Shown here: piece after piece, positions 12,148 through 36,344 of the stretch
How positions within the stretch are numbered: position 1 is the stretch's first letter
Layout: each line of letters starts with the position of its first letter
Assembly: GCA_965263355.1 (NCBI GenBank)
Contig: CBDHHL010000049.1
Span: 160,001-224,000, forward strand
Reading direction: 5' to 3'
DNA length: 64,000 nucleotides
Source: Leptolyngbyaceae cyanobacterium
GTDB taxonomy: Bacteria; Cyanobacteriota; Cyanobacteriia; Phormidesmidales; Phormidesmidaceae
Made by a program: the position numbers and the translations under genes
The notes under the pieces: generated by a model
What the model was told of the DNA's origin: nothing
Database searches by the model: none
Seen by the model: the letters and a program-made list of their open reading frames with translations, nothing else

Positions 12148-12159
12148 GCGAACAAATAA

Positions 12160-18100: not shown

Positions 18101-19398
18101 CTTGGGCAGCGGACGGCATGGCAGCCTGCTTAGGCACACAGTATCAAAGTCATCTGCAAGCCTTGGGCATTGCATCCATGACTCCCCAACAGGGCCTTAA
18201 ATCATTCACTCAGTTGTTGTCAGAACCCGACACGCAAGTTGGTGTATTCTCGATTAATTGGTCTAATTTTTTGAAACACCTACCCGGTAGAGTAAATCCT
18301 CCGTTTTTAGAAGAATTTGCTTCTAATGTAGTCGTTGAGACTAAAAATGATCGCCTCATTGAGCAATTGAGAACAGCTCCAGCAGATGAAAAAGAGAATA
18401 TCCTAACCCCTTATCTGCAAAATAAGATTGCGCGGGTTTTAGGGATGACAGCGTCCCTAATAGATGTTGAAGAACCACTTAATCAGATGGGACTTGATTC
18501 TCTGATGACGATCGAGGTACGTGCCCAAATTCAAAGAGAGTTGACCGTGGATTTGCCCATCGAAAAGCTCATAGAGGGGCCTAGTATTACTCAAGTCGCT
18601 ATATTACTGCTTGAGCAATTGGCGTTGACCGATGTTAGTGCATCAACCCAGCCAGATTTAACGGTTCACCCTGAAACTCACGAGGCTGCAGCGACTGAAC
18701 CTACCGAAGACCTTTTGACTGGAGAGCCTAAAGCGGTTCTACCAGGCCCTAGAAATTTAATTGCCCGTGTTATCCTCTGGATTTTTGGCTTTCTGACCCG
18801 ATTCATCTGGTCCATTGAAGTCGTTGGCCAGGAACACCTTTCACCCGAACCGCCTTTTATTCTTTGTGCTAACCATGAATCGCATTTTGATTCGCTATGG
18901 ATCACGTCGTACTTATCACCACAGCTGCGATATCAATTCTGTACTTTGGCGAAGCAAGAGCATTTTGAAAAACGAATACCGAGACTGTTGATGAGCCTTC
19001 TTGGTAGCATACCTGTGGACCGTCAAGGAGATTCGCTGCCAGCGCTCCGAACAGCAGCCCAAGGATTACTGGCGAAACGACCTTTATTTATTCACCCAGA
19101 AGGGACGCGTACGCGAACCGGTGAACTTTTACCCTTTCGAAGGGGAGCTGCCAAATTAGCCATTGCCACTAGTTCACCGATAATTCCCGTAAGGATCATT
19201 GGGGCGTACGCAATCTTTCCGCCTGATCAGAAATGGCCTAGCTTGTTTGACTGGAAAAACTGGCGACGGCGGCAGCTGAAGATTGTTTTTGGGGCACCAA
19301 TTGAACCATCAAAGCAAGAAAGGGGGTTGCAGGCAGAAATTCTTTTGACTGAACAACTCCGCCAGGCCATCATTGCACTTCACTGTTCTGAGTGTTAA
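12160..19398 (+). CDS. Terminal type I PKS module: KS-AT-DH-ER-KR-ACP plus C-terminal PlsC/AGPAT-like acyltransferase
   Basis: [52 protein letters not shown] and [16 protein letters not shown]. Followed by NHESHFD (NHx4D) and HPEGTR..G.L.PF..G, the lysophospholipid acyltransferase motifs. No TE GxSxG domain after the ACP. Confidence 0.95.
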
Positions 19399-19537
19399 TT
19401 TTGTGCGAGAAGTAGAGCCTTGAAGAATTGCTACCGTTTTGTATTAGACGACAATTATTTTGGGCTCTTCTGAGCTTTTAGTGAGCTGTTAAAGCTTGGT
19501 GCTAGCAAGACCTAAAGCAGAGCGTAGTGGATGTTTT

Positions 19538-20590
19538 ATGAATAGCGCATCTCCATTGGAACGTCTACCTATGGTTCATTTGAGTACAGAAAAAATTCCG
19601 CAAGAACATCAGCTCGAAGTTTGGCAACAGACAGCCTCTCCTCTATTTGATGTGATTCCCATGAAGGATATGCGGTCTTTTTCGTGTTCAGTCACCAGTT
19701 ACTTGGTAGGGCAGTTGACCTTTAATCACACAACATTTGATCGAACACAATTTATTCGTACATCGCGACATCTTTCAATTCATGGGTCTGATTGTATTAC
19801 TCTCCAGTATTACTGTTCTGGGCAAATTCAGGGAAATCTGGAGAGTGGCGTTCAGTTACAGATGGCGAGCGATCGCATCTCAATTCATGATTTTGCCCAT
19901 CCCTACACTGGCATTGGTGAAACAAGTAACCAGTTTGCCATTGTCATTCCGCGCCATTTAATTACGGTTCATGACCAAATTTATAAAAATTATCCTGTGT
20001 TTTCTTGGTCTGTCAATTCGTCGGTTGGTCGCATCCTGACCCATGCATGGCTGACGATTTGGAAAAATCTCCCCGATATGTCTCAGGCAGATGCCTCAGC
20101 AATCGCACAGGGATTTATTGGCCTACTCAATGGCCTATTATCTAGCAAGCTGGATATGGCAACTCGTGCCCAGGTAGAACTGTCCACAATAGATGCGATG
20201 AAAGCCCATTTACAGGCTAATCTCCATCTAATTAATCTGGGAGTAGAAAGTCTGTGTGAGATATTTCACTGCTCACGTTCCACCGTTTATCGGTTATTTA
20301 AAGCTGAGGGGGGAGTCCAAGCCTATGTGCGAGAACAACGCTTGAAGTACTGCTATCAAGAACTGCAACAATTACCACCCTCTTCACGTAAAACGATTAG
20401 TGAAATTGCCGGAAAGTGGGGGTTTGCTGATGCAGCATCCTTTAGCCGTCTCTTTCGAAAACATTACGGCATATCGCCATCAGAGGTGAATGCCTCCCTG
20501 TCTGAAGCCATCGCTCCAGTGATGAAAACACAGGCAAGTTATTGGTCTGAAAGCGATCGTCTAAAACAGTGGTTAGAGAATTATTCATAA
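19538..20590 (+). CDS. AraC-family transcriptional regulator (FeaR-like N-terminal ligand domain)
   Basis: C-terminal double HTH (SRSTVYRLF ... ISEIAGKWGFADAASFSRLFRKHYGISPSE). ATG at 19538 preferred over TTG at 19496. Confidence 0.92.
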   Translation: MNSASPLERLPMVHLSTEKIPQEHQLEVWQQTASPLFDVIPMKDMRSFSCSVTSYLVGQLTFNHTTFDRTQFIRTSRHLSIHGSDCITLQYYCSGQIQGNLESGVQLQMASDRISIHDFAHPYTGIGETSNQFAIVIPRHLITVHDQIYKNYPVFSWSVNSSVGRILTHAWLTIWKNLPDMSQADASAIAQGFIGLLNGLLSSKLDMATRAQVELSTIDAMKAHLQANLHLINLGVESLCEIFHCSRSTVYRLFKAEGGVQAYVREQRLKYCYQELQQLPPSSRKTISEIAGKWGFADAASFSRLFRKHYGISPSEVNASLSEAIAPVMKTQASYWSESDRLKQWLENYS

Positions 20591-20795: not shown

Positions 20796-22091
20796 ATGAA
20801 ACCTCATATTAAGCTGACCTTAAAACAGGATATTGTTCCCGATCAGATTCCGTATTGGGAGGATGTAGCCTCTGGAAAAGCTACTGCTCCAACTTCTATC
20901 TTGCCTGCGATTGATCAGGTGATTAAACAATATGGTTGTTCTGTAAGAGTTACGAGAGAATATCAGCCTGCTAGTAAAACCTGGGGCCAGGATGAGCGTA
21001 TCAGTGGGTTTAATCGAGTGTATCGCCTGATTTTGAGGCGAAAAACAGCTATTCCACCTGAGATGATACGCGCGATCGCAGCGCTGCCCATAGTCGCAGC
21101 GGTGACACCAAGTAAAGTAGCCACAGCTGTTCTGCCTTCGGTGATGGCACATTCTTTTTCCCTGGAGACCAATCAGCGATCGCGAGATGCGATCTATCTA
21201 CCAGAGGCCCATCACTACAGCCGGGGCAATTCGCAAATCACTGTGGCCGTGCTGGATACAGGGGTTGATCTCGATCATCCTGAGTTAACTGAAGCACTGT
21301 TGCCAGGCCATGACTTCGTCAACATTATTAATGGGGCCAGGAAGTTTGTTGGAGACTATTTAGGCTATGACGCCGACCCTGATGATGAGGTTGGGCATGG
21401 CACCCATGTAGCTGGCATTATTGCGGGTCAGGGATTAGCCATGCCGCTAGGGGTGGTGCCCCGCTGTAAGATTTTGCCCGTGAGAGTTTTGGGGGCGATG
21501 AAGAGAGGGTCTAAACGAGTCGGGGCAGGGTTGTTAGACAACATCAACGTCGGCATTAAATGGGCAATTGATCAGGGCGCGCATGTGATCAACATGAGCC
21601 TGGGCATTAAGCATACTGGGGGGGGACTACCGCATCAAGAGGTAGTGGAGTATGCCCGACGGAAGGGGGTTACGATCGTAGCCGCCTCTGGCAATGATGG
21701 GCAGGAAGAACGCTACTATCCCGGTGCCCTGCCCCATGTAATTACAGTGGGCGCGGTGGATGACATGGGCCAGATGGCAGCTTTTTCCACCTATGGACAG
21801 CAGGTGGATTTGGTCGCCCCCGGTACGGATATTTACAGTGCCTATCGCGGCCAGACCTATGGCTTTTCCACCGGCACATCCCATGCGACTCCCTTTGTGA
21901 CAGGGGCCGTGGCGTTATTAAAGTCCTATGCCTGGACCCATGGGGGAGTTTATTTGTTGGATCAGCAGGTTAAATATCTGCTGCAACAAACCACGGACAA
22001 AGTCGACCACCATTTCAAACACCGCAAAGCTGGGTTTGGTCAACTTAACCTTATTGATGCCTTGCGATTACTGGATTACAAACTGAGGTGA
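20796..22091 (+). CDS. S8 (subtilisin-like) serine protease with N-terminal prodomain, no signal peptide
   Basis: Catalytic motifs VAVLDTG (Asp), GHGTHVAG (His) and STGTSHATP (Ser), plus oxyanion AASGND. Confidence 0.95.
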   Translation: MKPHIKLTLKQDIVPDQIPYWEDVASGKATAPTSILPAIDQVIKQYGCSVRVTREYQPASKTWGQDERISGFNRVYRLILRRKTAIPPEMIRAIAALPIVAAVTPSKVATAVLPSVMAHSFSLETNQRSRDAIYLPEAHHYSRGNSQITVAVLDTGVDLDHPELTEALLPGHDFVNIINGARKFVGDYLGYDADPDDEVGHGTHVAGIIAGQGLAMPLGVVPRCKILPVRVLGAMKRGSKRVGAGLLDNINVGIKWAIDQGAHVINMSLGIKHTGGGLPHQEVVEYARRKGVTIVAASGNDGQEERYYPGALPHVITVGAVDDMGQMAAFSTYGQQVDLVAPGTDIYSAYRGQTYGFSTGTSHATPFVTGAVALLKSYAWTHGGVYLLDQQVKYLLQQTTDKVDHHFKHRKAGFGQLNLIDALRLLDYKLR

Positions 22092-22243: not shown

Positions 22244-23740
22244 ATGATGATACAGAAGAGATGGAGTAAAGCAGGATCAAATAGTGATAAAGCACAACAA
22301 GAAGTTGTCCAAGCAATCGCCGTTGATAAATCTGGAAATCTCTATGCAGCAGGTTATCGCACTGCAGCAACTAACAGAAAATATGCCTGGATTGGCCACT
22401 ATGATGTTGATTCAGGAAAATTCACCGAACTCGATGACTTAAAAAGAGAGACTAACGATGCTCAGGTATCAGTCTCAGCCATTGCCCTGGGTAACAATAA
22501 CCGCCTTTACGTAGCAGGGACCACCAAGGTCGTGTTTGGTTCTACGAGTATAGACAAAGGAGCAATCTTTGAGACTGATAAGGGGGAGCCGCTAGATCCT
22601 AAATCTGATAATCTTCTCAGCAATAAGGGCGCTTTAAATCACGTTTGGGTTGCTGAATATGTAGTCACTCAGCAAAGTAATGGCCAATGGAAGGCTGCTC
22701 AAAAGTGGGTGGTTGTGCTTAATCATCATGGTGATCAAGACGTCCATAGTATTGTGACTGATGGTAGTAGCGTTTATTTAACCGGGTCAACCAACACTAA
22801 CTTCTCCACAAGTGTGCCCAGTCCATACCCAACACCCAGTAGCCCCACAACTGCATGGGTGGCAAAAGTTACAGGAGGACAACACACAACTAATTGGATT
22901 GATCAAGTTTATCCAATTGAATCCGATAAAACCAGCAAGAATAGCAGAGGTCTCAACGTTCTTATTAATGGGAGTGGCAACTTAGAGGTCATAGGAGTAA
23001 GAGATAATACCCCTCATCCCACTGCATACTCAATTTGGGTGGCCGAATATAATCTCAATAAATACAATTCTAGCACTAGGGAGGGAAAGTCACTAACATC
23101 ACCTTCTAACATGTCTCTCAGTAAGGCAGTTCACGAAGACGTTACTGATATCACAACAGATGGTCAGCATATTTATGTTGCAGGACACACTGTAGATAGT
23201 CCTGTAGGATTTAGTTCAGCATTTTCACCATTTAAAGTTGGCGGCAAATGGCACTTTGTGGCTGGATTTGATATTAGTACTGGTAGGGAACTTTGGCCTT
23301 TAGAGAATAATCTAATCCTTAAAAACAGTGGCGGAGCTATTCAGAAAACAGCGATCGCTGTCCATGGCCAAAATCTTTATGTGACAGGGGATAACGTTTC
23401 TGCCGCAGCTGCGTGGGTGGCGAATATCGATGCTTTTACAGGGGAGCATTATGGGATTACCGACATATCTTTGTTAAAGCAACCTAATCATGACCAAGAT
23501 GCCTATGCAATTGCTGCCAATGATTTTGGTATTTACATTGCGGGAAGTACAGCCCAAAAATCGAACGGCGTGGTGGCCAGACTGGTAACTCATCTCAATG
23601 TCATCCTGGAGTATATCCGCAAAGCTTCTCGTCCTAGTTCTGTTTCTAGCGGTGTGAGACCCCCATTAGAAACAGAACTAGGAATTCCGACTTCACCTGT
23701 GCGCACAATCCTCAAGCACATCGGTTATCCGATTGCTTAA
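22244..23740 (+). CDS. Beta-propeller (SBBP-like repeat) protein
   Basis: Repeated blades: AIAVDKSGNLYAAG, AIALGNNNRLYVAGTT, SIVTDGSSVYLTGST, DITTDGQHIYVAGHT, AIAVHGQNLYVTG, AIAANDFGIYIAGST. RBS GAGGT. Confidence 0.75.
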   Translation: MMIQKRWSKAGSNSDKAQQEVVQAIAVDKSGNLYAAGYRTAATNRKYAWIGHYDVDSGKFTELDDLKRETNDAQVSVSAIALGNNNRLYVAGTTKVVFGSTSIDKGAIFETDKGEPLDPKSDNLLSNKGALNHVWVAEYVVTQQSNGQWKAAQKWVVVLNHHGDQDVHSIVTDGSSVYLTGSTNTNFSTSVPSPYPTPSSPTTAWVAKVTGGQHTTNWIDQVYPIESDKTSKNSRGLNVLINGSGNLEVIGVRDNTPHPTAYSIWVAEYNLNKYNSSTREGKSLTSPSNMSLSKAVHEDVTDITTDGQHIYVAGHTVDSPVGFSSAFSPFKVGGKWHFVAGFDISTGRELWPLENNLILKNSGGAIQKTAIAVHGQNLYVTGDNVSAAAAWVANIDAFTGEHYGITDISLLKQPNHDQDAYAIAANDFGIYIAGSTAQKSNGVVARLVTHLNVILEYIRKASRPSSVSSGVRPPLETELGIPTSPVRTILKHIGYPIA

Positions 23741-23800: not shown

Positions 23801-25570
23801 ATGAATCAAACCAGTTCTGTTGATGCAATCTTACAGGTCAACGCACCTAACATTCCTCTTGATACTTATACTCAAAAGGCTCTAGAAGAATTAGCCGCTA
23901 TGCTGCGATCAGAAGCAAGTCAAGGAAAGGAGCAAATAAAGTCTCAAGGATTAACTAGTAGGGTCTCTCAGGTTACCGCACAGTTAAATGCGACATCTTT
24001 GAAGGGGGTAACCCAACTCCTTCTCTCAAACAAAACTATCTACTCGGCTATGCTTTGTAGGGCCCTCAAAGAGGGGGCGAATGACGAACAGGCTCTGCAA
24101 AACGCTGTTTTACGATACCTTGAAGATGTCAAAAAGGTGCTCTACGCTCGAATGATTGATCTTGTGCGTGCGGACAATCACATTGACATTAAGCAAGACA
24201 CAAACAAGTGGCAGATGCTCGGGGAGTTGGTTCTAGCACAGGGAATTCCCATTGAATCAGGGAAGGTGAAACCTGCTGTGTTAGGTATGTTTAACACGAT
24301 TCATGAGCGGGGACTGCTGGACTATTACCTGGATGAATATATCAAGCGGGGGGAAATCGAGCCAAGTAAGTTCACCCCTGCCATCAAGACCAAGATGCTG
24401 GATCATCTGGTCAAGCTCAATCTGAAGATAAATGACAACCTTAGCGTTGCCCAACAAACAGCCTATGATGAGTATTTTGCCTTAGCTTACAGTGAGGCGA
24501 TTGGCAGTGGTTCAGCAACCAACGATCCCATTGACCAGGTTTATACAACTGGCTTTAAGAATAGCTGGGATTTTACCGTTGATGATCTCACGAAGTACGA
24601 CAAGCAAAATGTTGAACCCGAGAACATTCTGGCTGCCGGAGCCCTGGATTATATTTACTGTGTGGGTGAGGCAATGCGGGTTTTCGATGCAACCGATGCT
24701 CTGGTTTTACGCTGGGCCAGCGGTCTGTTAGATATTCCCGATGGTTCTACAGCCTCGGCCCTTTATCGGTATTACAAACGCCGGGACGATCGCTCCTCAG
24801 CCGAAGAGCGGGCCATGCTCTACAAGCGTGTGCTAAACCGAGGCAACGGCCAGCTGCTGACGCGCATGGTCGCCAATACTGGCTTTACCGATTTGTGGAA
24901 TGAACTTATGCAGGCTGTCATGGCCTACATCCGCAAGTCAGAGCACAAAGTCTATTGGAACTCCTGGCAAGACAACGGTTTGTCCTTGACCCACATCTAC
25001 CGCGTCACCGAAGACTTGCAATATAATCTCACCCTGCATATGACTGGGATGGCCCATCTGCAAGTGACGGAAGACTATCACCATCTTAAAGAAGCCCTCG
25101 ATATTATCAGCAGTCATGATATCCGCAACTACTATGGCGGCAGCAATCGCCAGAGCGTGTGGAACACCATTGCTCGGATTGTGCAGGAAGAGTTCCACGC
25201 TGGTCTCAATACTGAAGTCATCAAAACCATGGCCACTGAAGGCAATAAGGTGTTCCAGTGGTTGGCCAACTTTAATGAAAACACCGTAACAGCCGCTCAG
25301 TTTCAAACCTTTGCCAAAGCTGCCGAAGCCTGGGCGATCGCTCAATCAAGCCTCAGTGGCGGGCGTGTCGCTTATCACCCCCACTACGAATTACCCGGTG
25401 CCTCTCTGCCTGTACCGGCTGGTTACCACTCCAATGGTTATGGCCACCGCCACGGCCATGGATATTTGGGTCATAACGCGCTGCCTGGGGCCGACTTTAA
25501 CGGCAGCCACGGGCTGTCACAGGCGGAGGCTGTTTACGCCGATGCCAGTGATGAGTTTGACCAATGGTAA
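23801..25570 (+). CDS. Hypothetical, largely alpha-helical protein with a His/Gly-rich tail
   Basis: 589-aa ORF with RBS GGAG. The tail GYGHRHGHGYLGH...AEAVYADASDEFDQW looks disordered. Confidence 0.85.
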   Translation: MNQTSSVDAILQVNAPNIPLDTYTQKALEELAAMLRSEASQGKEQIKSQGLTSRVSQVTAQLNATSLKGVTQLLLSNKTIYSAMLCRALKEGANDEQALQNAVLRYLEDVKKVLYARMIDLVRADNHIDIKQDTNKWQMLGELVLAQGIPIESGKVKPAVLGMFNTIHERGLLDYYLDEYIKRGEIEPSKFTPAIKTKMLDHLVKLNLKINDNLSVAQQTAYDEYFALAYSEAIGSGSATNDPIDQVYTTGFKNSWDFTVDDLTKYDKQNVEPENILAAGALDYIYCVGEAMRVFDATDALVLRWASGLLDIPDGSTASALYRYYKRRDDRSSAEERAMLYKRVLNRGNGQLLTRMVANTGFTDLWNELMQAVMAYIRKSEHKVYWNSWQDNGLSLTHIYRVTEDLQYNLTLHMTGMAHLQVTEDYHHLKEALDIISSHDIRNYYGGSNRQSVWNTIARIVQEEFHAGLNTEVIKTMATEGNKVFQWLANFNENTVTAAQFQTFAKAAEAWAIAQSSLSGGRVAYHPHYELPGASLPVPAGYHSNGYGHRHGHGYLGHNALPGADFNGSHGLSQAEAVYADASDEFDQW

Positions 25571-25639: not shown

Positions 25640-26701
25640 ATGATGACCAACAATGGAAACTTAATGGAACAGGCTAAGCAATTAGCCCGTGAAGAATTTA
25701 GTCGCGATCAAACCTTCCAAAAGCTCGATCGTAGCCAACAGTTTGAACTGTATCGCGATCGCGTAAATGACATCCACAACCAGCTTGCCCAACAACAAAC
25801 TGTGTCGGATGCCATGTCAGCGGACCAACTCGTAAATAAGAAATTTCTCCAAAACCAACGGATTGATCAGGAAGGTGAGCAGGCCGGTAGAGTGCTGCGG
25901 GACGTAAATTTCCCCAAGTTTGTTAAAGATCTGCTCAAAGGGGTGTTTGACGCCAATTTGACAGTGATGAAGGAGCAGATGGAATCCTACGTGGATTTGG
26001 TCGAGAAAATCACCAAGCCAGCCAGCGAGTTTATTAAGACCATTGACGATGTTGCGGCCTACACCTTTATGGCGGAAAGCCAGCCCAATCGTTTCCAGTT
26101 GTTACCGCCAAAGGCTCCCTCAAACCTGCCGGGGGGAACTCCGCCGGGTGTGGGAAGTGTTCCTCAGCTATCCACCAGTAGCGGCACGCAATTGGCGGAT
26201 AAGGACGGTAATCCACTGAGTAAAGACGATATCCGTGGGGAGGTAATGCAGGCCAAACTACAGCTTGCCAATCAGCATCAGCAGTTGTTGGAAGAGATGT
26301 TGCTGATGGGGGTCACCCGTCTAGTCGTAGACCACGGTAAGGTGAAGGCCAGCGTTGATTTCCAAATTAAAGCCCATGAGGCTCTCAATGCAAGCGATAG
26401 TGCCTACGAAAACAAGCAACACTCCCAAACAAAAGGCTTTCATCTTGGTTACTCACCCTTTTTTCGGGGACCCTCTTTTGGTATTAGTCACTCCAAGACC
26501 AACACCCAAATCCAGATTTCAACTGCGGGTGCTACTGGTACCGGAACAACGGACGAAACGACCAAGGTCCATGGCGAAGTGGAAATCAACTTCAAGTCAG
26601 ATTACTTCAAGTTGGATAATTTCCGCGATATCTTAGCCCAGACTAAACCCAAAACGGACCAGAAAGACAAGACCCAACCGGTTGACCAATCGGAGTCTTA
26701 A
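25640..26701 (+). CDS. Hypothetical protein: helical N-half plus long Ser/Thr-rich beta-hairpin-like C-half (candidate pore/tube subunit)
   Basis: 353-aa ORF. C-half VKASVDFQIKA...GFHLGYSPFFRGPSFGIS...TKVHGEVEINFKSDYF. Function is inferred only. Confidence 0.75.
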   Translation: MMTNNGNLMEQAKQLAREEFSRDQTFQKLDRSQQFELYRDRVNDIHNQLAQQQTVSDAMSADQLVNKKFLQNQRIDQEGEQAGRVLRDVNFPKFVKDLLKGVFDANLTVMKEQMESYVDLVEKITKPASEFIKTIDDVAAYTFMAESQPNRFQLLPPKAPSNLPGGTPPGVGSVPQLSTSSGTQLADKDGNPLSKDDIRGEVMQAKLQLANQHQQLLEEMLLMGVTRLVVDHGKVKASVDFQIKAHEALNASDSAYENKQHSQTKGFHLGYSPFFRGPSFGISHSKTNTQIQISTAGATGTGTTDETTKVHGEVEINFKSDYFKLDNFRDILAQTKPKTDQKDKTQPVDQSES

Positions 26702-26737: not shown

Positions 26738-27073
26738 ATGGCGCTGGCGATTTTGCACTACGAAGACAGCAATAGTACCCACTGCCGGTTTCGTATCGAC
26801 ATTGGCACAACAAATCGGTTCTATACCTATGCCATTGGCGATCATCGCATGTTGCAACGCCATGGTCTGGTGGTGTTTGCCCAGCCAAAGGTGGTTTCAC
26901 CTCTGTTGTCACTAGCGGCATACCGCCTGGGGCGGGGCGTTTTGACAATTCCCCACCCGCAGTTTGATACCCGTCATTGTTATGTGCAACTGATCAGCTA
27001 TCGAACCGCAGATAAACAGGGGCCAGCCCTGTCCACCATCATTAGGGTCCCGTTGTTCTCCTCCAGTCGATAA
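26738..27073 (+). CDS. Small hypothetical protein (beta-rich)
   Basis: 111-aa ORF with upstream GGAG, co-oriented within the cluster. Confidence 0.65.
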   Translation: MALAILHYEDSNSTHCRFRIDIGTTNRFYTYAIGDHRMLQRHGLVVFAQPKVVSPLLSLAAYRLGRGVLTIPHPQFDTRHCYVQLISYRTADKQGPALSTIIRVPLFSSSR

Positions 27074-27087
27074 CATGCGGGTCTCGG

Positions 27088-27126
27088 TCTGTTATTCCAA
27101 TCTGTTATCTCAATCTGTTATCTCAA
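27088..27126 (+). repeat. 13-bp tandem repeat x3
   Basis: TCTGTTATTCCAA TCTGTTATCTCAA TCTGTTATCTCAA in the intergenic gap. Confidence 0.85.
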
Positions 27127-27172
27127 TGGCAACCGCGATCGCAATTGTCATGTCTTTCTCCCATCTGTAATT

Positions 27173-28882
27173 TTGTTTATCCGTGAAGCAATGACCATGG
27201 ATCACCAACCCACTTACACCATGTCTTTTGCCTACGACGAAATCCGCCCTGACACCTACAGTCTGGGCCAGGGATTCTTAGGCAAGTTATTCAAAGGGGC
27301 TACCAAAGTCATATCCGGGGTTGTCAAAGGCGTATCCCACGCCATCCCTGTGGTCAGCAAGCTTGCCGGGAAGCTATTACCGGCCCTTATGCCTGCGTTA
27401 GAACCCGTTTTGGGTAAAAAAGGGGCCTCCCTGGTGGGGCAACTGGCTGGCATTTTAGGCGGCAGCGGCGGCAAGATAACGGATGTTCTCAAAGACCCTG
27501 CCAAAGTAGCCCAAATCGCTAAGCTTCTAAAGACGACTGGCCTGACGCAAAAACTGGCTCATGCGAAGGGAGAACCAGTGGAGGCCATGGGGCATTCGTA
27601 CGGTTTTTCTCAAGGGTATGGGGCCATGGCCCCCACCTATGGGGAATACGGATACCCCGATGAAGAATACCAACACCCCGAGCGCATCCTAACCCAGCTG
27701 CTGGAACATTCGCTGCACCCAGAAACGTTGCAGGGACTGATGGTCGATACCCTACGTCCTGCCGTTATGCGAGGGATGGTGGTCCATGGCCTTATAGATA
27801 CCTTTAAGCTAATTCCAGGGTTTCCTGATGCGTTGGAGCGGATGGTAACAGAAGAGTCATGGTCCACAGGTCAACCACCCGCGATCGCAGGGCTGGCCTC
27901 CCACTCTCCCGAATACCCCTACCATCGGGTGGAAGCCGTCACCCTGCATTTTACGGATATTGAACCGCTGAGCGTAGGCGGGCGATCGCGGGTGCTTTAC
28001 TACATCGGGGATGACCTGGCGTTTCCCCTGGAACTAGAGACACCTCGCCCCATCCGCCACGGGACACTGCAGATTTTGGTCAAGTGTCCCGAGACGCTAA
28101 AGGTGATGGTGGAGCAAACGTTTCAGCTCCATCACCTCGTGTCAGGTGAGCTAGATACAGTACCTTACCTGAGCCGGTCCCAGCTGCGATCGCTCCAACC
28201 CAATGCCGAGTATCTGATCTGTGCCGTTTTGACCTGGACGGCGCGCTCCAGCCAGAGCGGGCACGAACGACGCTTAGGCACCAGCACCAGTGTGTTAGCG
28301 ACGCTGATGGGCAACTATATTTTTGACCAGCTAGACGGGGTTACTGAGACCTTTGCCCTCAACGATCCCCAGACGCATCGCCCCTACTGGCATAAAGTCT
28401 GGACGGGCGGGATGGCCACCGATGACCAAACCCTGGCCCTAGATTGCAAATACTATTACGTCCTGGAGGCTGAGCCATCTCAGCATGCCCGCATGGAAAC
28501 CCTTATCCGCATGGATGCCCACGGCGGCGATGCCTCCGGTAAATTAAAAACGGGGTTGGTATTGAGTCTCACCCAGCTCAATCAGCTAGCGGCCTGGATG
28601 TTCGAGCAGCCCCCCCTGGACACTGACGAAATCGTCGCCCTGGCCTGTTGTGAATTTTGCGATCGCTTTCACCAATTAGCCCGCACCCAGGTGACTTTTA
28701 CCGGCGACGCTGGCGATCGCGCCACCCTTTGGGTCTATCCCGAATTCGATCAGCAGCGAGTGGTGCTAAAGCAGGTTAGCGATCGTGATGCCAATGGCCG
28801 CGTACAACAACTTGTTGACCACATTATTCAGTTCCCCATACCAACAACCGCTCACTTTGTAGGCACCACTACCGCCGTCTAA
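27173..28882 (+). CDS. Hypothetical protein with N-terminal cationic amphipathic segment and beta-rich C-terminal domains
   Basis: 569-aa ORF (true start may be ATG 27191 or 27197), containing FLGKLFKGATKVISGVVKGVSHAIPVVSKLAGKLL. Confidence 0.8.
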   Translation: MFIREAMTMDHQPTYTMSFAYDEIRPDTYSLGQGFLGKLFKGATKVISGVVKGVSHAIPVVSKLAGKLLPALMPALEPVLGKKGASLVGQLAGILGGSGGKITDVLKDPAKVAQIAKLLKTTGLTQKLAHAKGEPVEAMGHSYGFSQGYGAMAPTYGEYGYPDEEYQHPERILTQLLEHSLHPETLQGLMVDTLRPAVMRGMVVHGLIDTFKLIPGFPDALERMVTEESWSTGQPPAIAGLASHSPEYPYHRVEAVTLHFTDIEPLSVGGRSRVLYYIGDDLAFPLELETPRPIRHGTLQILVKCPETLKVMVEQTFQLHHLVSGELDTVPYLSRSQLRSLQPNAEYLICAVLTWTARSSQSGHERRLGTSTSVLATLMGNYIFDQLDGVTETFALNDPQTHRPYWHKVWTGGMATDDQTLALDCKYYYVLEAEPSQHARMETLIRMDAHGGDASGKLKTGLVLSLTQLNQLAAWMFEQPPLDTDEIVALACCEFCDRFHQLARTQVTFTGDAGDRATLWVYPEFDQQRVVLKQVSDRDANGRVQQLVDHIIQFPIPTTAHFVGTTTAV

Positions 28883-28941: not shown

Positions 28942-29223
28942 ATGTCCTCTCCCTCTCCCCCACCCTTGCACTCCCCCTTCTCCCAGGTTGTAGAACAACT
29001 CACCGGCTGGGAAGCCCCCCTCGAAGATTCAACCTGGGGGCATCGTCTCACCGTGGACGCCTTAAAGGTGACTATGCCCATAGAACTGAGCATTGACGTC
29101 GACAATACCGGCGCGGTCACAGTCAACGGGTCGGCCCCCACCCAAACGGTCGAAACCACAATCATGCCAGTGTTTCATCGTGTGCGGATGCGTTTGACGG
29201 TGGACGAGGAAGCGACGCCATGA
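28942..29223 (+). CDS. Small hypothetical protein, Trypco-like pattern (short helix plus long beta strands)
   Basis: 93 aa, RBS GGAG, ATGA overlap with the next gene. LTVDALKVTMPIELSIDV...HRVRMRLTV resembles protease-co-occurring small domains; this resemblance is by eye. Confidence 0.65.
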   Translation: MSSPSPPPLHSPFSQVVEQLTGWEAPLEDSTWGHRLTVDALKVTMPIELSIDVDNTGAVTVNGSAPTQTVETTIMPVFHRVRMRLTVDEEATP

Positions 29224-29963
29224 ACACCACCAACCAGCCCTGGAACCTCAATTCCTTTATCGACGCGCTGATCTACGAACTCGATCGCGCCCACGATACT
29301 TTGTCAGTAAAAGGCACCAACCGCAAGCTCACCTATATGGTCAAAGACTTAGATCTGGACTTGCAGTTATTTCCCGAATTTGATGGAGATGCGGTTTACT
29401 TTACCACCGCTCAACCAGGTGACATCGGAGCCTCTAAAATCAGTGTGAAATTAGGGTCTATTCGCGACCATCAAATCCAGGAAATTGCCAAAAAACCTGT
29501 TAGCCATGCCGACATTGCCCTGGAAGAAACCCAACTACCGCTAGCCACGCGCAAAATCTTAAAGAAGCTAGGCATTCACTCCGCCGAAGACCTGCGCCAC
29601 ACCATCGAAGATCGCGGTATCGACCTAAACATTGCTACCGACGGCCAGGTCGATTACCAGCAGCTTACCGACATTCTCCACCAGGCCCACCGCCAGCACT
29701 ATCCACCGACCGTCGCCAGCGCCAAATTTGACCAGGTCGACGGCCAGCCCGTCCTCACCCTACAGGGCAAAAATCTCGCTGTCACCCAATCCACCAATGG
29801 CTTTCCCGCCGCCCTGCTCGATGGCCACCCCATCCCGATGTTGACTGCCAGGGAAGATGAGATTCAGTTTCAGCTTGACCCGCAACAACTGCACAATCGC
29901 CCCGGACAGTTAAAAGTAGCACTGGACCCGTATGCGGTGGTGGCGATGAAATTGGCGGTTTGA
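29220..29963 (+). CDS. Hypothetical protein: Trypco-like N-domain, HhH-like helix pair, Ig/TIG-like C-domain
   Basis: N-domain LNSFIDALIYELDRA...YMVKDLDLDLQL...ASKISVKL; middle RKILKKLGIHSAEDL; C-domain VLTLQGKNL...GQLKV. Translationally coupled to the upstream gene. Confidence 0.7.
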   Translation: MNTTNQPWNLNSFIDALIYELDRAHDTLSVKGTNRKLTYMVKDLDLDLQLFPEFDGDAVYFTTAQPGDIGASKISVKLGSIRDHQIQEIAKKPVSHADIALEETQLPLATRKILKKLGIHSAEDLRHTIEDRGIDLNIATDGQVDYQQLTDILHQAHRQHYPPTVASAKFDQVDGQPVLTLQGKNLAVTQSTNGFPAALLDGHPIPMLTAREDEIQFQLDPQQLHNRPGQLKVALDPYAVVAMKLAV

Positions 29964-30098: not shown

Positions 30099-31313
30099 AT
30101 GTCTAATGCGTCTTCCTATTACAATCGTCTCCGATCGCTCGAATCTGAGCTGTTGGATCGGGGTGGGGCGGTGTCAGCAGATAGGCCGGTTACACCGCAG
30201 CGGAGATTGCTGGATACGGGTGTTGAGACTTCCCACAGGAGCTGGATATCTCCCGGTTGGCGAAGAGAAGGAGCCCATCGAGAACAGTGGCCATCGCAGC
30301 CAAGTGACATATCTAGCGGTAATCGACTGCTAGGGTTGGCACACCATTTGGATCGGGGGCGTGTCAGCGCCTCAGCTACCCCTGAGAGAGTATCACCTTC
30401 GGTCTCCTCAGCTCGGCGTTCTGTCGCTGACAACGGCTTTGCAGCCTATGTCTTTGATCAGGGTGAGCACATCCAGGTGGGCTACAGACCAAAGGTGTCT
30501 CTCCCAGAAGATGAAGTGGAGGATTGGGCAGATGAAGCGCCCGACTGGACTGATCAGTGGGATAACCACTGGGACGGTGACTGGGAGGACGATGAGTCAG
30601 AATATTGGGAGCCTGACGAGGATCTGACAGAGGATGAACAGTCTGCTTGGGAGGAGGAAGAGGCTGAGTGGGAGGAGGACCGGCCCCAACCGTTGACCCA
30701 GCGACCACAGGCAGCGCCCGGTCACCCGTCGGCTCCTGGGCCTACTTCCAAAACACCGGTTCAGCGCAATGGGCAGCGCCCGGTCACCCGGACCGTCGTA
30801 GTCGATGACGTTCCGGCTAAGTCACCTAGCAAACCACCTGCCCAGCGCCCCGCCACGCAGACCGTCACGGTCAAACCGATTCCTGTAGATGACGGAGCGG
30901 CCCCGACAACAGAGGCCAGTCCGCCACCGCCAGCTGCCCGGAATGGCCATGCCGCCCGAGCACCCAAAGCCATCCCCCGGACCCGCCCGCCCAAGGCAAA
31001 GGGCACCACACCGCCACGCCCGTCGGCTCCGCGGCCCCCGACCCCAAAAGCGAACCCAGCCCCGTCTCCGGCCAGGGCGAATGGCAATAACCCGCACGCG
31101 GCCTTTGGCAAGCTTAGTCAATCGTTAAACCACGCCACTGCCTTCAACCTGGGCACTGTCCCCGTTGAAATCCCCTTCGATGACTTTGATCATCGCATTA
31201 CCCAAGAGACCACCGCCCAGGCCCAAGCCCTAGAGCACCGCTTTAAAGAATTCGATCGCGTACTCACCCGCAAGCCTAAAACCAAACCTTCCGAACGCGC
31301 CCCGCCATCCTAA
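30099..31313 (+). CDS. Intrinsically disordered protein with an acidic Trp/Asp/Glu tract and a Pro/basic tract
   Basis: 404 aa. EDWADEAPDWTDQWDNHWDGDWEDDESEYWE followed by a Pro/Arg/Lys-rich region. Shares short motifs with the next ORF. Confidence 0.8.
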   Translation: MSNASSYYNRLRSLESELLDRGGAVSADRPVTPQRRLLDTGVETSHRSWISPGWRREGAHREQWPSQPSDISSGNRLLGLAHHLDRGRVSASATPERVSPSVSSARRSVADNGFAAYVFDQGEHIQVGYRPKVSLPEDEVEDWADEAPDWTDQWDNHWDGDWEDDESEYWEPDEDLTEDEQSAWEEEEAEWEEDRPQPLTQRPQAAPGHPSAPGPTSKTPVQRNGQRPVTRTVVVDDVPAKSPSKPPAQRPATQTVTVKPIPVDDGAAPTTEASPPPPAARNGHAARAPKAIPRTRPPKAKGTTPPRPSAPRPPTPKANPAPSPARANGNNPHAAFGKLSQSLNHATAFNLGTVPVEIPFDDFDHRITQETTAQAQALEHRFKEFDRVLTRKPKTKPSERAPPS

Positions 31314-31370
31314 ATCTTACCTTTTACCTGTTACTCGTCACTTGTTCCTTTCTCTTCCCCCGAGGTACCC

Positions 31371-32699
31371 ATGACCCAAACTACCTTGCCCAACCGCCTA
31401 TTTGCCCTCGACCAACATCTCACTCACAAACGCATGCATGCCAATGCGCCGCCTGGTACGAGGGTAGCCTACCGATTTGATCAGGGGGCACCCATCCGGG
31501 CCATGGGGTATCCCGAATGGGATACCGACTCGGAGTACGCCGAGGCCAACGACTGGGACGACGAGGACTTCGAGAATGAAGCCTATGCCGAGGCCAGTGA
31601 TTGGGATGACGAGGACTTCGACGTCGATGGGGACTATGCCGAGGCGAGTGATTGGGACGATGACGACCTCGAGGACGAAGCAGAATACGCCGAAGCCAAT
31701 GCCTGGGACGACGAGGACTTCGAGAACGACTCGGAGTACGCCGAGGCCAGTGCCTGGGACGATGACGACTTCGACGTCGATGGGGACTATGCCGAGGCCA
31801 GTGCCTGGGACGACGAGGACCCCGACCACGACGCCTATGCTGAGGCGAGTGATTGGGACAATGGCGATTTTGAGGACGCCTCGGAGTATGCCGAGGCTAA
31901 TGACTATGTGGATGCCTACGATGTCGACGCGGACCACCTAGATGGCTTAGAAGCGGAGGCCGACGAAGACATCTATGCCGAGGCCAGTGAGTACTCCGAC
32001 GATGATGAAGCCGCCTATGCCGAGGACTTCGACGTTGAAGACCCCGGTGAGTGGGCGGAGGACTTTGACGCGGAGGACGACCCCGATGCCTGGGCGGCGG
32101 AGTTCGACCCAGCTGATGACTACGCCGATGCCGCTGGGGACCCTGCCACCTATGTCGACGCGATTGTAGAAGCCCCGGTGGCCTATGAAGCCGCATCGTT
32201 TGAGCTGGGGGACGCACCAGAGGATTGGGCTACTGAGGACCAAACCATTACGGTAGAGGCGGCGGCTGTAGATTCCACTCCAGCTGACGACGATACCGAG
32301 GTGGCCCCGACATCGGCCCTGGCAGCGGAAGTTGCGGCCTTGCGGCACGATGTGCAGGCCTTAAGTCACACTCCGCAAGTAGCCTCGCCTACGTACCCCG
32401 CGACGGCGTTTACTACCGAGTTGCAGGAACTGCGCGACCAGGTGCGGGCGATGCAGGCCAACAAGCCGCCAACAGCCAATCCGGCAGAGGCAGAGGCCAT
32501 GGCGGCGCAAGTGCAGGCGTTGAAGCGGGAGCTACAGTCGATGCGGGTACAGCGCTCGACGGAAGCGCTCAGCTCCGGTTACTGGACGGCACTGGAACAG
32601 GAGCCATTGTTTAAGGCTTTCGACGACCAAATGGCCGCGTCCGTGGCACCCCCCGCGACCCCAGAGGACATATCAAAATTATTAGCTGATTCTCCTTAA
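31371..32699 (+). CDS. Highly acidic repeat protein with C-terminal coiled-coil segments
   Basis: 442 aa, RBS GAGGT. Nine YAEA[S/N] units, then three short heptad helices (LAAEVAALRHDVQAL, LQELRDQVRAM, VQALKRELQSM). Confidence 0.85.
   Translation: MTQTTLPNRLFALDQHLTHKRMHANAPPGTRVAYRFDQGAPIRAMGYPEWDTDSEYAEANDWDDEDFENEAYAEASDWDDEDFDVDGDYAEASDWDDDDLEDEAEYAEANAWDDEDFENDSEYAEASAWDDDDFDVDGDYAEASAWDDEDPDHDAYAEASDWDNGDFEDASEYAEANDYVDAYDVDADHLDGLEAEADEDIYAEASEYSDDDEAAYAEDFDVEDPGEWAEDFDAEDDPDAWAAEFDPADDYADAAGDPATYVDAIVEAPVAYEAASFELGDAPEDWATEDQTITVEAAAVDSTPADDDTEVAPTSALAAEVAALRHDVQALSHTPQVASPTYPATAFTTELQELRDQVRAMQANKPPTANPAEAEAMAAQVQALKRELQSMRVQRSTEALSSGYWTALEQEPLFKAFDDQMAASVAPPATPEDISKLLADSP
31533..32030 (+). 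repeat. Coding tandem repeat, about 48-51-nt units (YAEA[S/N]xWDDxDF...)
   Basis: Repeated TAYGCCGAGGCCA(G/A)YG..TGGGACGAYGA units in the DNA, in frame with ORF 31371-32699. Confidence 0.9.
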
Positions 32700-32922
32700 G
32701 GGGCACCCCCGCAAATCCAGGATTTCAAGAAAGACGAAGTCCCATTGGTCGTGGCTATCCACACACCGTTACCGCCTGCTGAAGGGCGGCTCGCTTACCA
32801 GGCAACAAAGTGTAGTCAATAAGTCACACAACCACACCAGCCAAGGCCGCCGCTCCATGCCATGTCTTCCCTTGAGTGACTCAAGGTCCACATCGGAACA
32901 AGCCACCTTATTCAGAGGAACT

Positions 32923-34359
32923 ATGAATAAACTACGAATGATCGAGGCATTTCTCTACCCAGCTGCCACACATCCCAACCGCGAGGAGCCAACGGAACAC
33001 CGCCTGCAACTAACCAGTGCATTAGGCTACGACCAAGTTCTAGCTGCGCGCCGGGCGCGATCGCACGAAGTTATCACCGAAGCAAAGAAAGCAAACGTCA
33101 AAAAAGACAAAGACTCGCTTTCCCAATTTTTGGGAACGTACATCGATAAAATCTACCCGAACACTAAAGCCGATGACAAATGGTTAATCACTGAAGAGCT
33201 TCTGCAGCAGATAGCTGAGACCAACTCGCCATATAGAACCTACGCAAACTCGTTGCTCAACACGACTTACAGCGAGGAGAATCTCAAAAGGAAGAAGTAC
33301 TATATCCAGAACAACAAGGTAACCAAAGTCTCAGACCATTCCAGTAATCCACGCATCAAGTATTACCGCTACATGGGCAAGATCTACAAGGTCACTACGA
33401 AGAAGGCTAATGCAGAGTTTCCCAAGAATATAGGGAGTCGACTTAAAAATCTAATCACCATTCTCACCCCGAAAAACATAAAAAGGAATACGAAAATCAC
33501 TACGAAAATCACATGGATAGATGTCTCTCCCACCGGCTATGACAACGAGTACGACGCGTCAATTCTTCTTTCCTATTCTTATAATAAAAATGTGTCTGGC
33601 AGATTTCATTGTCACTTGCACAAACAATATAACCAATTAAATCCAAAGCCAGGAAACGGCTGGGTTGTTTTCACAGACGGCATCACAATCGAACTTAACA
33701 GAGAAGACTGGAAACCGTGGGCGCTGGCAGCATGGGGCGATGAGTTTCAAATCTCAAAATACGATAAATCTGCCAATGTTATTGACGCTATCGCCAAGAG
33801 AATCCAAAAAAGGCCCGGAAAACACAAGGTAGAGAAAGCACTCGGTCTCAATCAATACAAGATCTCGAACCTAGACTTCGATGGCATACCAATTTATCTA
33901 AAATACACAAAAACCGGAAAGGTAAAAACGTTAATGGTAGGCAACATGAGTATCTTCGACGTAAATATCAAAGGCACGTCCAAGAATACGATATCCAAAA
34001 TCCGTAGTGCCCTGGATAAGTTGGCCACCTACAAGAAATTCGGAAACGAGATTATTACCGCAACACTAAAAGAATTGGCTGATATGATAGATTCGAAGAC
34101 TAATAACGAAACGAAAGTTGAGTTACACCCCAAATACTCATCCACCATCAATATTATCGTCACTGAAAATAAGTCCGGTCGCTCCAATATTATTACCCGA
34201 CCGCTTTCTATAAGCCAACAAACGGGCAAACCCCTTCAGTTGTGGTATGGCAACGACTCCATCATCTTGACTGAAGACGCCTCAATAAAGCTCGAGAACA
34301 CTCTAAAGTTGATCGCAGGTTATGAAGATCTCGTCAACAGGCTCCAAAACCCTAAGTAG
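32923..34359 (+). CDS. Lys-rich basic hypothetical protein with a cluster-type N-terminal leader (candidate cargo/effector)
   Basis: ATG 32923 follows AGAGGAA. Leader MNKLRMIEAFL...TSALGY. The body is visibly more AT-rich and Lys/Ile/Asn-rich than the two upstream genes. Confidence 0.75.
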   Translation: MNKLRMIEAFLYPAATHPNREEPTEHRLQLTSALGYDQVLAARRARSHEVITEAKKANVKKDKDSLSQFLGTYIDKIYPNTKADDKWLITEELLQQIAETNSPYRTYANSLLNTTYSEENLKRKKYYIQNNKVTKVSDHSSNPRIKYYRYMGKIYKVTTKKANAEFPKNIGSRLKNLITILTPKNIKRNTKITTKITWIDVSPTGYDNEYDASILLSYSYNKNVSGRFHCHLHKQYNQLNPKPGNGWVVFTDGITIELNREDWKPWALAAWGDEFQISKYDKSANVIDAIAKRIQKRPGKHKVEKALGLNQYKISNLDFDGIPIYLKYTKTGKVKTLMVGNMSIFDVNIKGTSKNTISKIRSALDKLATYKKFGNEIITATLKELADMIDSKTNNETKVELHPKYSSTINIIVTENKSGRSNIITRPLSISQQTGKPLQLWYGNDSIILTEDASIKLENTLKLIAGYEDLVNRLQNPK

Positions 34360-35783: not shown

Positions 35784-36344
35784 ATGTTTAAACTCTCTGC
35801 AGGTTTTGGGATTGCAGCTGCTAGCCTGCTCGCACTTTCGGCGGCTCCGGCGGCGGCAGCTCAGTTTACGGCCTCCTATGACTTTGGTGGACCGGCCACC
35901 GACGGTGATGTGTTTACGTTTGATTTTGAGGGAATGATCAATGGCGATAATGAAAATCTGATTGAAGGCGTATCCTCTCTATCGAATTTTCAGTTAGGAG
36001 GTGTTTCTGTTTTTGACCCCGGAGATCCGGGTATTTTTGGTGGACCTTTTTCGGTGGTTTTGGATGTTCTCTCTTTTGATGGCACTGCCAACTCTTTTAT
36101 AGCAACCAACCCTATTGCTACCGATGTGCTTGCATTCCAATCTGGTTTTGGTGCAGTTGTCCAATCTAATGCGGTTTTTGGACCCTCTGGTTTTTCTGTC
36201 TCTGAGAGTTTTGATGCCGCCCGATGGTCTGTGGTTAGCCCCCCTGCCACCGCCGTCCCCGCACCTGCCCCTCTCCCAGGAATCATCGGCATGGGCTTTG
36301 CTTTGTGGCGCAAACGCAAACTAGCACAGTCCGACAAATCGTAG
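35784..36344 (+). CDS. Secreted protein with PTPA/PEP-CTERM-type exosortase sorting signal
   Basis: N-terminal signal peptide (AAASLLALSAAPAAAA). C-terminal AVPAPAPLPGIIGMGFALWRKRK (Pro motif, TM segment, basic tail). Confidence 0.85.
   Translation: MFKLSAGFGIAAASLLALSAAPAAAAQFTASYDFGGPATDGDVFTFDFEGMINGDNENLIEGVSSLSNFQLGGVSVFDPGDPGIFGGPFSVVLDVLSFDGTANSFIATNPIATDVLAFQSGFGAVVQSNAVFGPSGFSVSESFDAARWSVVSPPATAVPAPAPLPGIIGMGFALWRKRKLAQSDKS

Follow-up and report, generated by a model that had tools for sequence, protein, structure and literature searches.

Introduction

The cargo-loading peptides of encapsulins and bacterial microcompartments are short and terminal, amphipathic in the microcompartments, and common to scaffold and cargo. 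In the extracellular contractile injection systems (eCIS) of the Photorhabdus virulence cassette (PVC) type, a released particle takes up unrelated effectors by way of a short N-terminal peptide, and this needs a tail tube, a sheath and the AAA+ ATPase Pvc15 (PMC9054023; this and the other papers are cited for the parts of them available to us). Here, we describe an operon in a stretch of 64,000 nucleotides (the window) from a Leptolyngbyaceae cyanobacterium (assembly GCA_965263355.1, contig CBDHHL010000049.1, positions 160,001 to 224,000). Its genes, all on the plus strand, encode an AraC regulator, an S8 subtilase, a beta-propeller, core proteins of 589, 353, 111 + 569, 93 and 247 amino acids (aa), and then tagged open reading frames (ORFs). 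The tag, with the consensus N-R-L-x-x-L-E-x-x-L, opens the proteins encoded 3' of core gene 5, which codes for the 247-aa protein. We found the NRL helix as a conserved tag at the N-terminus of the scaffold-like and enzyme proteins of one cluster. We lean toward the view that it would serve as the cargo-docking tag of a protease-matured polymorphic-toxin particle built from the core proteins.

The likeness to PVC/eCIS lies in the short N-terminal peptide on unrelated effectors, known here from sequence alone (PMC9054023). Unlike those systems, the cluster has no tube, sheath, baseplate or VgrG: no such match was obtained in PHROGs for ten core and tagged proteins, nor in Pfam or NCBIfam. The annotated loci L001 and L002 list no tail-type genes, the subtilase is a core gene here, and no core gene encodes an ATPase, the AAA matches among 37 scanned upstream ORFs being only sigma-54 activators. 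The capsid targeting sequence of phage T4 is removed by the prohead protease. In common with it, our system shows one leader on diverse passengers, a disordered scaffold and a maturation protease (PMC3012670). It differs from the T4 head in having no HK97 capsid, portal or terminase and no core gene 5 relative in viral contigs, and it is a chromosomal or plasmid operon under a transcription activator. As for encapsulins and microcompartments, no shell family was matched in the operon; two of the five core proteins were folded computationally, and neither found a match.

The S8 polymorphic toxin systems (S8-PTS) also place an S8 peptidase beside polymorphic toxins, where it was proposed to release the toxin domains; they combine a signal peptide, BetaH and a toxin with an immunity gene and are described from Gram-positives (PMC9424270). 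In contrast, the tagged proteins carry no signal peptides (a hydropathy screen gave a hydrophobic N-terminus in 1 of 130; BetaH was not searched for). There is no room for immunity genes between the tagged genes, since 44 of the 49 gaps between successive ones are shorter than 200 nt (genes after the last cargo were not screened). Five extra core genes are present, and the phyla are mostly Gram-negative. The Streptomyces umbrella toxins resemble our locus in combining variable lectin or beta-propeller targeting parts with polymorphic toxins; Umb is a multi-protein particle, whereas the particle is predicted here (PMC11062931). Umb particles are exported by twin-arginine translocation (TAT) and have ALF repeats and a trypsin-like domain that is inactive (PMC11062931). 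Of these features, none was detected here. Neither ALF nor trypsin was matched in the window's cluster proteins or the core alignments, and the protease triad is intact.

Protease-activated beta-barrel translocons are known from binary toxins. A predicted helix-plus-hairpin protein with a conserved cut site connects our cluster with Pepco/Trypco and EACC1 (PMC12642450, PMC7159879), from which it is set apart by the lack of detectable homology, the absence of sensor domains and the many separate cargo genes. As far as their available parts describe them, the subtilisin-linked systems of PMC3482391, PMC7159879 and PMC12642450 have other architectures. No published description of the operon or the tag was found in a search that did not cover subscription journals or supplements (the operon tables of PMC3482391 and PMC7159879 could list the operon). 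We rate both as new because no family, fold or literature match was obtained within these limits.

Results

The comparison covered 83 loci: the window, two plasmid loci and the 80 that were fetched of 204 species-genome stretches confirmed by alignment of the 353-aa protein. Across them, the genes recur in the order S8, variable slot, 589, 353, 660, 93, 247. BLAST matched the S8 family in 71 loci and the 589-, 353-, 660-, 93- and 247-aa families in 81, 83, 71, 68 and 69, and many of the misses are contig ends. The ORFs behind core gene 5 were assigned to slots mechanically, with some wrong ORFs included. The earlier note on this DNA had proposed a motif whose strict form, sought in the first 60 residues with the window left out, occurred in 26/106 slot-1 and slot-2 ORFs. 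It was found in 0/442 core ORFs, in 0/826 other ORFs and in none of 200 shuffles. A tag profile of 16 columns was built with 62 distinct relatives as seeds and the window excluded. Among 75,434 six-frame positions of the window, it ranked 31392 first (23.4 bits), 30123 second (20.3 bits) and 30321 third (16.4 bits). When each locus was left out in turn, 12 bits or more were reached by 28/57, 36/49 and 7/19 ORFs in slots 1, 2 and 3, by 0/442 core ORFs and by 5/826 other ORFs, every one of them cluster-adjacent. For 80 metagenome loci outside the training, the counts in successive slots were 21/57, 19/27, 2/15 and 2/9, compared with 2/297 for other ORFs.

The tag was also sought in whole genomes. 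Nine of the 12 matches (E ≤ 0.1) in 60 cyanobacterial genomes lay within 10 kb of core gene 5, and the 56 genomes devoid of this gene contributed 3 weak matches. A weak match in genome G006 (C1:4224825) was rejected; it sits in a polysaccharide locus and is no tag by the profile. Five cluster-bearing genomes yielded 13 matches, 11 of them inside clusters, and two of the five gave none. The earlier note would have abandoned the motif had it been poorly conserved or at background frequency; it is kept in orthologues, far above background and confined to the cluster. The motif and profile scan of homologous clusters also brought up the further leader-bearing proteins with variable toxin or enzyme bodies that had been predicted.

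In 122 of 130 distinct tagged proteins, the tag starts at most 12 residues from a Met; two to three copies are present in 32, and the 25 residues after the tag average 23% Lys + Arg (K+R). The helix has the heptad-like spacing L-x-x-L-x-x-x-L and an amphipathic moment of 0.3–0.4. Together with the several copies per scaffold, these properties would also suit a self-association element, a short coiled-coil that clusters scaffold and cargo; a signal for an exporter encoded elsewhere is a related option. We consider either role quite improbable. That N, R and E hardly vary at their fixed positions points to a specific pocket, and the 64 distinct genomes scanned gave no tagged gene outside the cluster, weak matches aside.

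The window itself holds two strongly tagged proteins. The first (404 aa, 30099–31313, plus strand) is low-complexity and scaffold-like. It carries the tag NRLRSLESEL at residue 9 (30123–30152, plus strand, 20.3 bits) and a second copy, NRLLGLAHHL (30321–30350, plus strand, 16.4 bits), which had been missed before. These are followed by an FDxGEPIxLxY module, AYVFDQGEHIQVGY (30444–30485, plus strand). Its C-terminal module of the H..FD..M.YA.SFDLG..RFDEFD type was matched in 25/83 loci. The second protein (442 aa, 31371–32699, plus strand) contains the tag NRLFALDQHL at residue 8 (31392–31421, plus strand, 23.4 bits), an FDxGEPIxLxY module, AYRFDQGAPIRAMGY (31467–31511, plus strand), about nine acidic 17-residue repeats of the YAEAS-DW-DDEDF type (31532–32005) and a coiled-coil-like C-terminal part. 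Matches to it were found in 7/83 loci, the window counted. Its relatives end differently: those of L003 and L008 carry PAD, that of L005 has a long unannotated extension, those of L006 and L009 end short, and that of L007 is cut by the locus end. BLAST detected no similarity between the 404- and 442-aa proteins (best E = 11), which have only short motifs in common; the FDxGEPIxLxY modules of both correspond to DNA repeat D6 (74% over 35 nt). The earlier note had placed the motif on three consecutive proteins, at 30123, 31392 and 32926, with exact coordinates and sequences. The first two copies stand far above chance, and the third is weak (2–3 bits versus 20–25 bits).

In the related loci, two kinds of tagged protein were distinguished: low-complexity, motif-rich ones of the 404/442-aa type, and ones in which a short basic linker leads to an enzyme. 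The division into scaffold and cargo drawn earlier fits this pattern, with disordered motif-rich proteins in the first slot or slots and enzymes in later ones. From 125 downstream ORFs, we picked 58 proteins by hand. Pfam matched 32 of these, with 22 Peptidase_C70, 3 PAD, and further C92, amidase, lysozyme, glucosaminidase, M15, EndoU, patatin, CAP and OmpA domains. A further 39 hand-picked proteins gave 18 matches, with GH25, GH108, tail lysozyme, M35, VanY, tyrosinase and LCAT as new domains; these 18 include an eCIS-core gene that is untagged and lies on the other strand, and weak tags precede some of the bodies. Behind strong tags we found Peptidase_C70, C92, PAD, EndoU, patatin, CAP, phage lysozymes and GH25, among others. 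The bodies behind the tag are variable and otherwise unrelated: AvrRpt2-like protease, arginine deiminase, lysozymes, EndoU, patatin and CAP. Cell-wall hydrolases, to which many of the tagged proteins belong, act outside the cytoplasm.

The block L193 has four tagged genes in tandem and a fifth nearby. In Adonisia turfae (L037, L193/L194), the two blocks of a second cluster are separated by about 1.7 Mb of scaffold; the break falls within core gene 3, at runs of N, and may be an artefact of assembly. An eCIS-core (PF13699) gene on the opposite strand stands amid the tagged genes. A subtype of five loci (L044, L051, L055, L061, L062) has an untagged protein of about 800 aa in slot 1, with an amidase domain in L044; in L044, L051 and L055, it is followed by a tagged C70-like protein.

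The S8 subtilase (20796–22091, plus strand; Peptidase_S8 E = 4e-53) has a pro-domain and is the predicted maturation protease. Its triad D154, H201 and S362 is invariant in 45 homologues, and 0/45 have a hydrophobic N-terminus. Such N-termini are also absent from the 353- and 247-aa families and rare in the other three core families (3/65, 5/69 and 9/56). The predicted junction of pro-domain and catalytic domain, AHSFS (21165–21179, plus strand), was the model for a processing motif. The pattern small-x-small-[LMF]-small occurs within 12 residues before the catalytic domain in 36/45 S8 homologues. The expression was written after the S8 junctions had been viewed, and a stricter form was used for the enrichment counts. 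Subtilisin prefers a large hydrophobic P1 and a small P2 residue, and the motif therefore fits cutting by a subtilase.

Relative to shuffled sequences, the strict motif was enriched 2.48-fold in tagged proteins and 2.56-, 1.58- and 1.39-fold in the 247-, 660- and 353-aa families; the comparison sets gave 1.11 (unrelated ORFs) and 0.87 (variable slot). A junction motif lies at most 70 residues after the tag in 60/130 proteins (22.4 in shuffles, maximum 33) and after the N-terminal domain of core gene 3 in 43/69 (18.4 in shuffles, maximum 27). Repeats of the form YEASAF-DY, every one of them similar to a junction motif, were seen in relatives of the 442-aa protein. The earlier note had assumed a common GY ending as the site of leader removal, a proposal that did not survive comparison. 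HIQVGY and PIRAMGY belong to the FDxGEPIxLxY module, which ends in GY in 1/62 relatives and in x-Y in 34/62, and LTSALGY is no third copy of it, being a junction-type T-S-A-L-G site. The small-x-small-[LMF]-small pattern fits better, and a junction motif of the A-x-A/S-L/M/F-S type would be the likelier leader-removal site.

The frequent company of tag and junction motif, found within about 70 residues of each other far oftener than in shuffles, could have another meaning. The tag might be a docking site for the S8 protease, an exosite comparable to the leaders of RiPPs (peptides made on ribosomes and modified after translation), and mark zymogens for activation instead of loading. The presence of the protease in the cluster in 71/83 loci would agree with this. 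On the other hand, the 353-aa protein, the 660-aa protein and the S8 pro-domain have conserved junction motifs but no tag (0/442). The predicted cuts thus do not require the tag. The repeated tags of the scaffolds also suggest multivalent binding. We regard protease docking as unlikely and continue with a role of the tag in cargo loading.

The core proteins were examined by alignment and structure prediction. Core gene 1 (23801–25570, plus strand) encodes the all-alpha 589-aa protein; its model (predicted local distance difference test, pLDDT, 84.5) gave nothing at E ≤ 0.001 or Z ≥ 8 against PDB and BFVD. Core gene 2 (25640–26701, plus strand) encodes the 353-aa protein, for which 1,037 homologues were obtained at E ≤ 0.001 among 2,769 candidates. 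Its model (pLDDT 70, predicted template modelling score 0.43) comprises N-terminal helices, the junction motif SDAMS at residues 56–60 (25805–25819) and a long Ser/Thr/Gly-rich beta-hairpin at residues 233–318 (26336–26593), with an unresolved tip of pLDDT below 50. Across 117 homologues, the hairpin measures 83–90 aa with 34% S+T+G, and small-[LMF]-small stands before the junction in 111. No significant match to this model, of the aerolysin or MACPF type or any other, was found in PDB; the best Foldseek hit was a podophage tail protein at E = 0.23. The best VIA Z was 6.6, with a root mean square deviation of 2.0 over 62 residues, on the N-terminal helices. Weak podophage-tail and FlhA-domain structural matches (Z 5–6) were set aside as insignificant. 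An Atlas feature score of 0.79 links the protein to a cluster with 19% DUF2589, and PF11655 was matched by 0/117 members at E ≤ 0.05. From its shape and composition, we infer that the 353-aa protein is a candidate pore or needle subunit; as the folded core proteins gave no fold match, the word pore derives from these two properties alone.

Core gene 3 consists of two ORFs in the window: the N-terminal domain of 111 aa (26738–27073, plus strand) and a remainder of 569 aa (27173–28882, plus strand), in which amphipathic Gly/Leu/Lys-rich helices between junction motifs precede conserved domains. In relatives, the two are fused into one protein of about 660–800 aa in the same frame; here, an in-frame stop separates them. 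The split (27071–27196) comprises this stop and about 33 extra codons with a short direct repeat. It falls at the predicted processing junction, which is also the start of the L072 copy. In one study, contigs from two samples cross the stop without any difference there. The amphipathic helices of the 660-aa protein resemble membrane-lytic peptides; no usable Atlas match was obtained for this protein. Core gene 4 (28942–29223, plus strand) encodes the 93-aa protein. Core gene 5 (29220–29963, plus strand), the last before the tagged genes, has a weak C-terminal IPT/TIG domain, and TIG was matched in 9/64 members at E ≤ 0.05.

No core protein matched a Pfam, NCBIfam or PHROGs family at the cut-off, and when profiles from four core alignments were run against Pfam and PDB sequences, only noise came back, as which the Focal_AT and SseC rows were disregarded. 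The core profiles show no detectable relation to each other. Alignment with hhalign against a 16-sequence Trypco1 profile gave probabilities of at most 2%, and Trypco2 was looked for through Pfam member scans only.

The third protein of the motif series is an orphan of 478 aa (32923–34359, plus strand), lysine-rich and, from its position and leader, probable cargo. The earlier note had allowed that its true start might lie downstream of the motif; it does not, given the AGAGGA just before the ATG at 32923 and a public gene call of the same 478 aa. One public contig covers 32591–34850 without differences. The candidate tag NKLRMIEAFL, at residue 2 (32926–32955, plus strand), scores 3.3 bits (rank 15 of 75,434), or 1.9 bits by the smoothed profile. 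A score of 3.3 bits near a Met was reached by 5/781 background ORFs, two of them apparently true tags, and 1.9 bits smoothed by 59/1,621, of which about 22 are by eye missed tags. No homologue of the body was found among 7,999 scored candidates or 1.84 billion representatives, and the protein gave no Pfam, NCBIfam or PHROGs match. An alternative body, suggested by loose contig ends that all three runs show at 33080 and 33109, was discarded; the ends flank a 30-nt A-rich stretch and were taken as chance. The lower contig depth over the propeller and orphan genes was given no weight.

Quite possibly, NKLRMIEAFL resembles the tag by chance and the orphan gene came in behind the operon as an insertion unrelated to it. 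The score of 1.9–3.3 bits, which about 2% of background ORFs equal, is in line with this, as are three residues rare or unseen in 130 tags (position 2 is K in two of them, position 5 is never M and position 9 never F). The linker of the orphan has 8% K+R compared with a median of 24%, and 12/19 slot-3 ORFs in relatives score lower yet and look unrelated. On the opposite side, M-N stands at the commonest offsets, with E and both outer leucines in register. The motif is followed 20 residues on by TSALG (residues 31–35, 33013–33027, plus strand), a candidate processing site that may end the leader in a layout like that of other cargo leaders; VGALG (L065), ASQLG (L056) and YSMG/YSLA (L193) lie at comparable leader ends. 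The GC fraction drops from 0.56 in the first 46 codons to 0.42 behind them. The ORF ranks third of 47 window ORFs by the smoothed profile, barely above the fourth, and tandem cargo arrays of other loci contain evident degenerate tags of 2–9 bits. On this evidence, the motif at 32926 is probably a degenerate true tag on an orphan cargo.

The operon begins behind an AraC-family regulator (19496–20590, plus strand; HTH_18 E = 1e-16), by its position the likely activator. Of 61 upstream ORFs in related loci, 37 were picked by hand and scanned; 23 are regulators (11 sigma-54 activators, 7 BTAD, 2 LuxR, LysR, GntR and LytTR). The variable slot is filled here by a beta-propeller (22244–23740, plus strand; SBBP match), a likely target-binding module, and SBBP, LamG, peptidoglycan (PG)-binding or OAA-lectin domains turned up in 10 of the 30 relatives that were scanned out of 43. 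Public contigs join alternative sequence at 22089, just past the S8 gene, and at 24302, near codon 167 of the 589-aa gene, which suggests that a cassette of the propeller and the 589-aa N-terminal part varies among co-occurring strains or copies. Variable-slot proteins of L005 (7207–8142), L006 (7067–8104) and L009 (7202–8140) have their own twice-repeated N-terminal peptide of the WNALSQLF type, perhaps a second docking motif.

The fetched loci span cyanobacteria, Proteobacteria, Gemmatimonadota, Bacteroidota, Acidobacteriota, Myxococcota, Planctomycetota and Actinomycetota, and the closest named relatives of the window cluster are filamentous cyanobacteria. The operon is patchy: core gene 5 is present in only 4/60 related cyanobacterial genomes, and 30 pattern matches for its relatives in viral contigs gave 0 confirmed. 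In L003, L024 and L059, the operon is broken up between core genes by insertions, transposase-like or other; three propeller paralogues precede the 589-aa homologue in L003, and L059 has two copies of core gene 4. A divergent operon on a Burkholderia pyrrocinia plasmid (L002, 2814–18554) shows a reshuffled order, four 353-aa paralogues, no NRL tags, a 1,254-aa amidase-annotated gene, and a sigma-54 activator and DUF3467 upstream. In the window, three very large ORFs (2–19398) lie directly upstream. The third (12160–19398) reads as a type I polyketide synthase that ends in an acyltransferase-like domain, a reading made from the translation, not from a domain scan. A PTPA-CTERM sorting-domain protein, a cyanobacterial marker, is encoded at 35784–36344. 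Promoter and terminator scans stayed at chance level.

Discussion

The mechanism we propose for the tag and its particle has six steps. A dedicated activator would switch the operon on, and the core proteins would then assemble in the cytoplasm around disordered tagged scaffolds. Cargo would bind via the amphipathic helix and the basic linker behind it. The subtilase would cut its own pro-domain and the N-terminal parts of the 353- and 660-aa core proteins, and likewise the repeats of the scaffolds and the leaders of the cargo. The complex would leave without Sec, probably by lysis. A lectin, propeller or PG-binding module would finally attach to the target cell, where the beta-hairpin protein and the freed amphipathic helices may breach the membrane.

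Several observations weigh against this proposal. The two strong tags of the window sit on proteins without an enzyme body, while the sole candidate cargo has a weak one. The tag does not occur throughout: it is lacking from about half of the slot-1 ORFs (some of them mis-slotted), no ORF of the divergent Burkholderia-type cluster L002 scores above 6 bits, and G012, with a distant core gene 5, gave no tag match. The strict junction motif is not enriched in the S8 or 589-aa families overall (1.06–1.17), and it matched at only 8/18 C70 borders, most of which show similar R-A-F/Y-x words. Neither folded core protein (353, 589 aa) matches a known capsid, tube, pore or translocon. The absence of room for immunity genes is unusual for an antibacterial polymorphic system. 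Binding, particle and cut all stay predicted.

The lack of room for immunity genes, together with a protease and tagged proteins devoid of signal peptides, would also be in line with a system that acts inward, in intracellular suicide, defence or programmed lysis. The protease would then activate the pore-forming core and the tagged effectors inside the producer, as in Pepco/EACC1, and the tag would be an EAD-like adaptor. Lysozymes and amidases could lyse the producer. Protease-activated beta-barrel pores are described from cyanobacteria and actinomycetes in the available part of PMC12642450. However, the variable lectin, propeller or PG-binding slot points outward, a transcription activator precedes the cluster with no STAND or other sensor among the 37 scanned upstream ORFs, and no profile match to Trypco1 was obtained. 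We give an inward-acting system little credence beside a particle that loads its cargo through the NRL tag.

Conclusions

With a chance that we put a little short of even, the operon may represent an unrecognised class of delivery machine, unrelated to phage tails or the numbered secretion systems. Such a machine, present in many phyla, would be a particle that lysis releases and the subtilase matures. It would combine a beta-hairpin pore and a ten-residue loading tag with an aiming module of the lectin type that can be swapped, and its polymorphic arsenal would be directed at bacteria and eukaryotes. If this is true, a weapon of a new kind, aimed at other bacteria or at predators, would be formed by the conserved six-gene core, the defined tag, the interchangeable effectors and the predicted code for processing. 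The operon is carried by cultured strains, among them Baaleninema simplex PCC 7105, Leptolyngbya sp. PCC 7375 and Calothrix sp. NIES-4105, and the tag makes the system directly testable. The tag also predicts which orphan proteins are cargo, thereby opening a route to new enzyme families. Even under the rival explanations, the cluster would be an undescribed protease-controlled conflict system.

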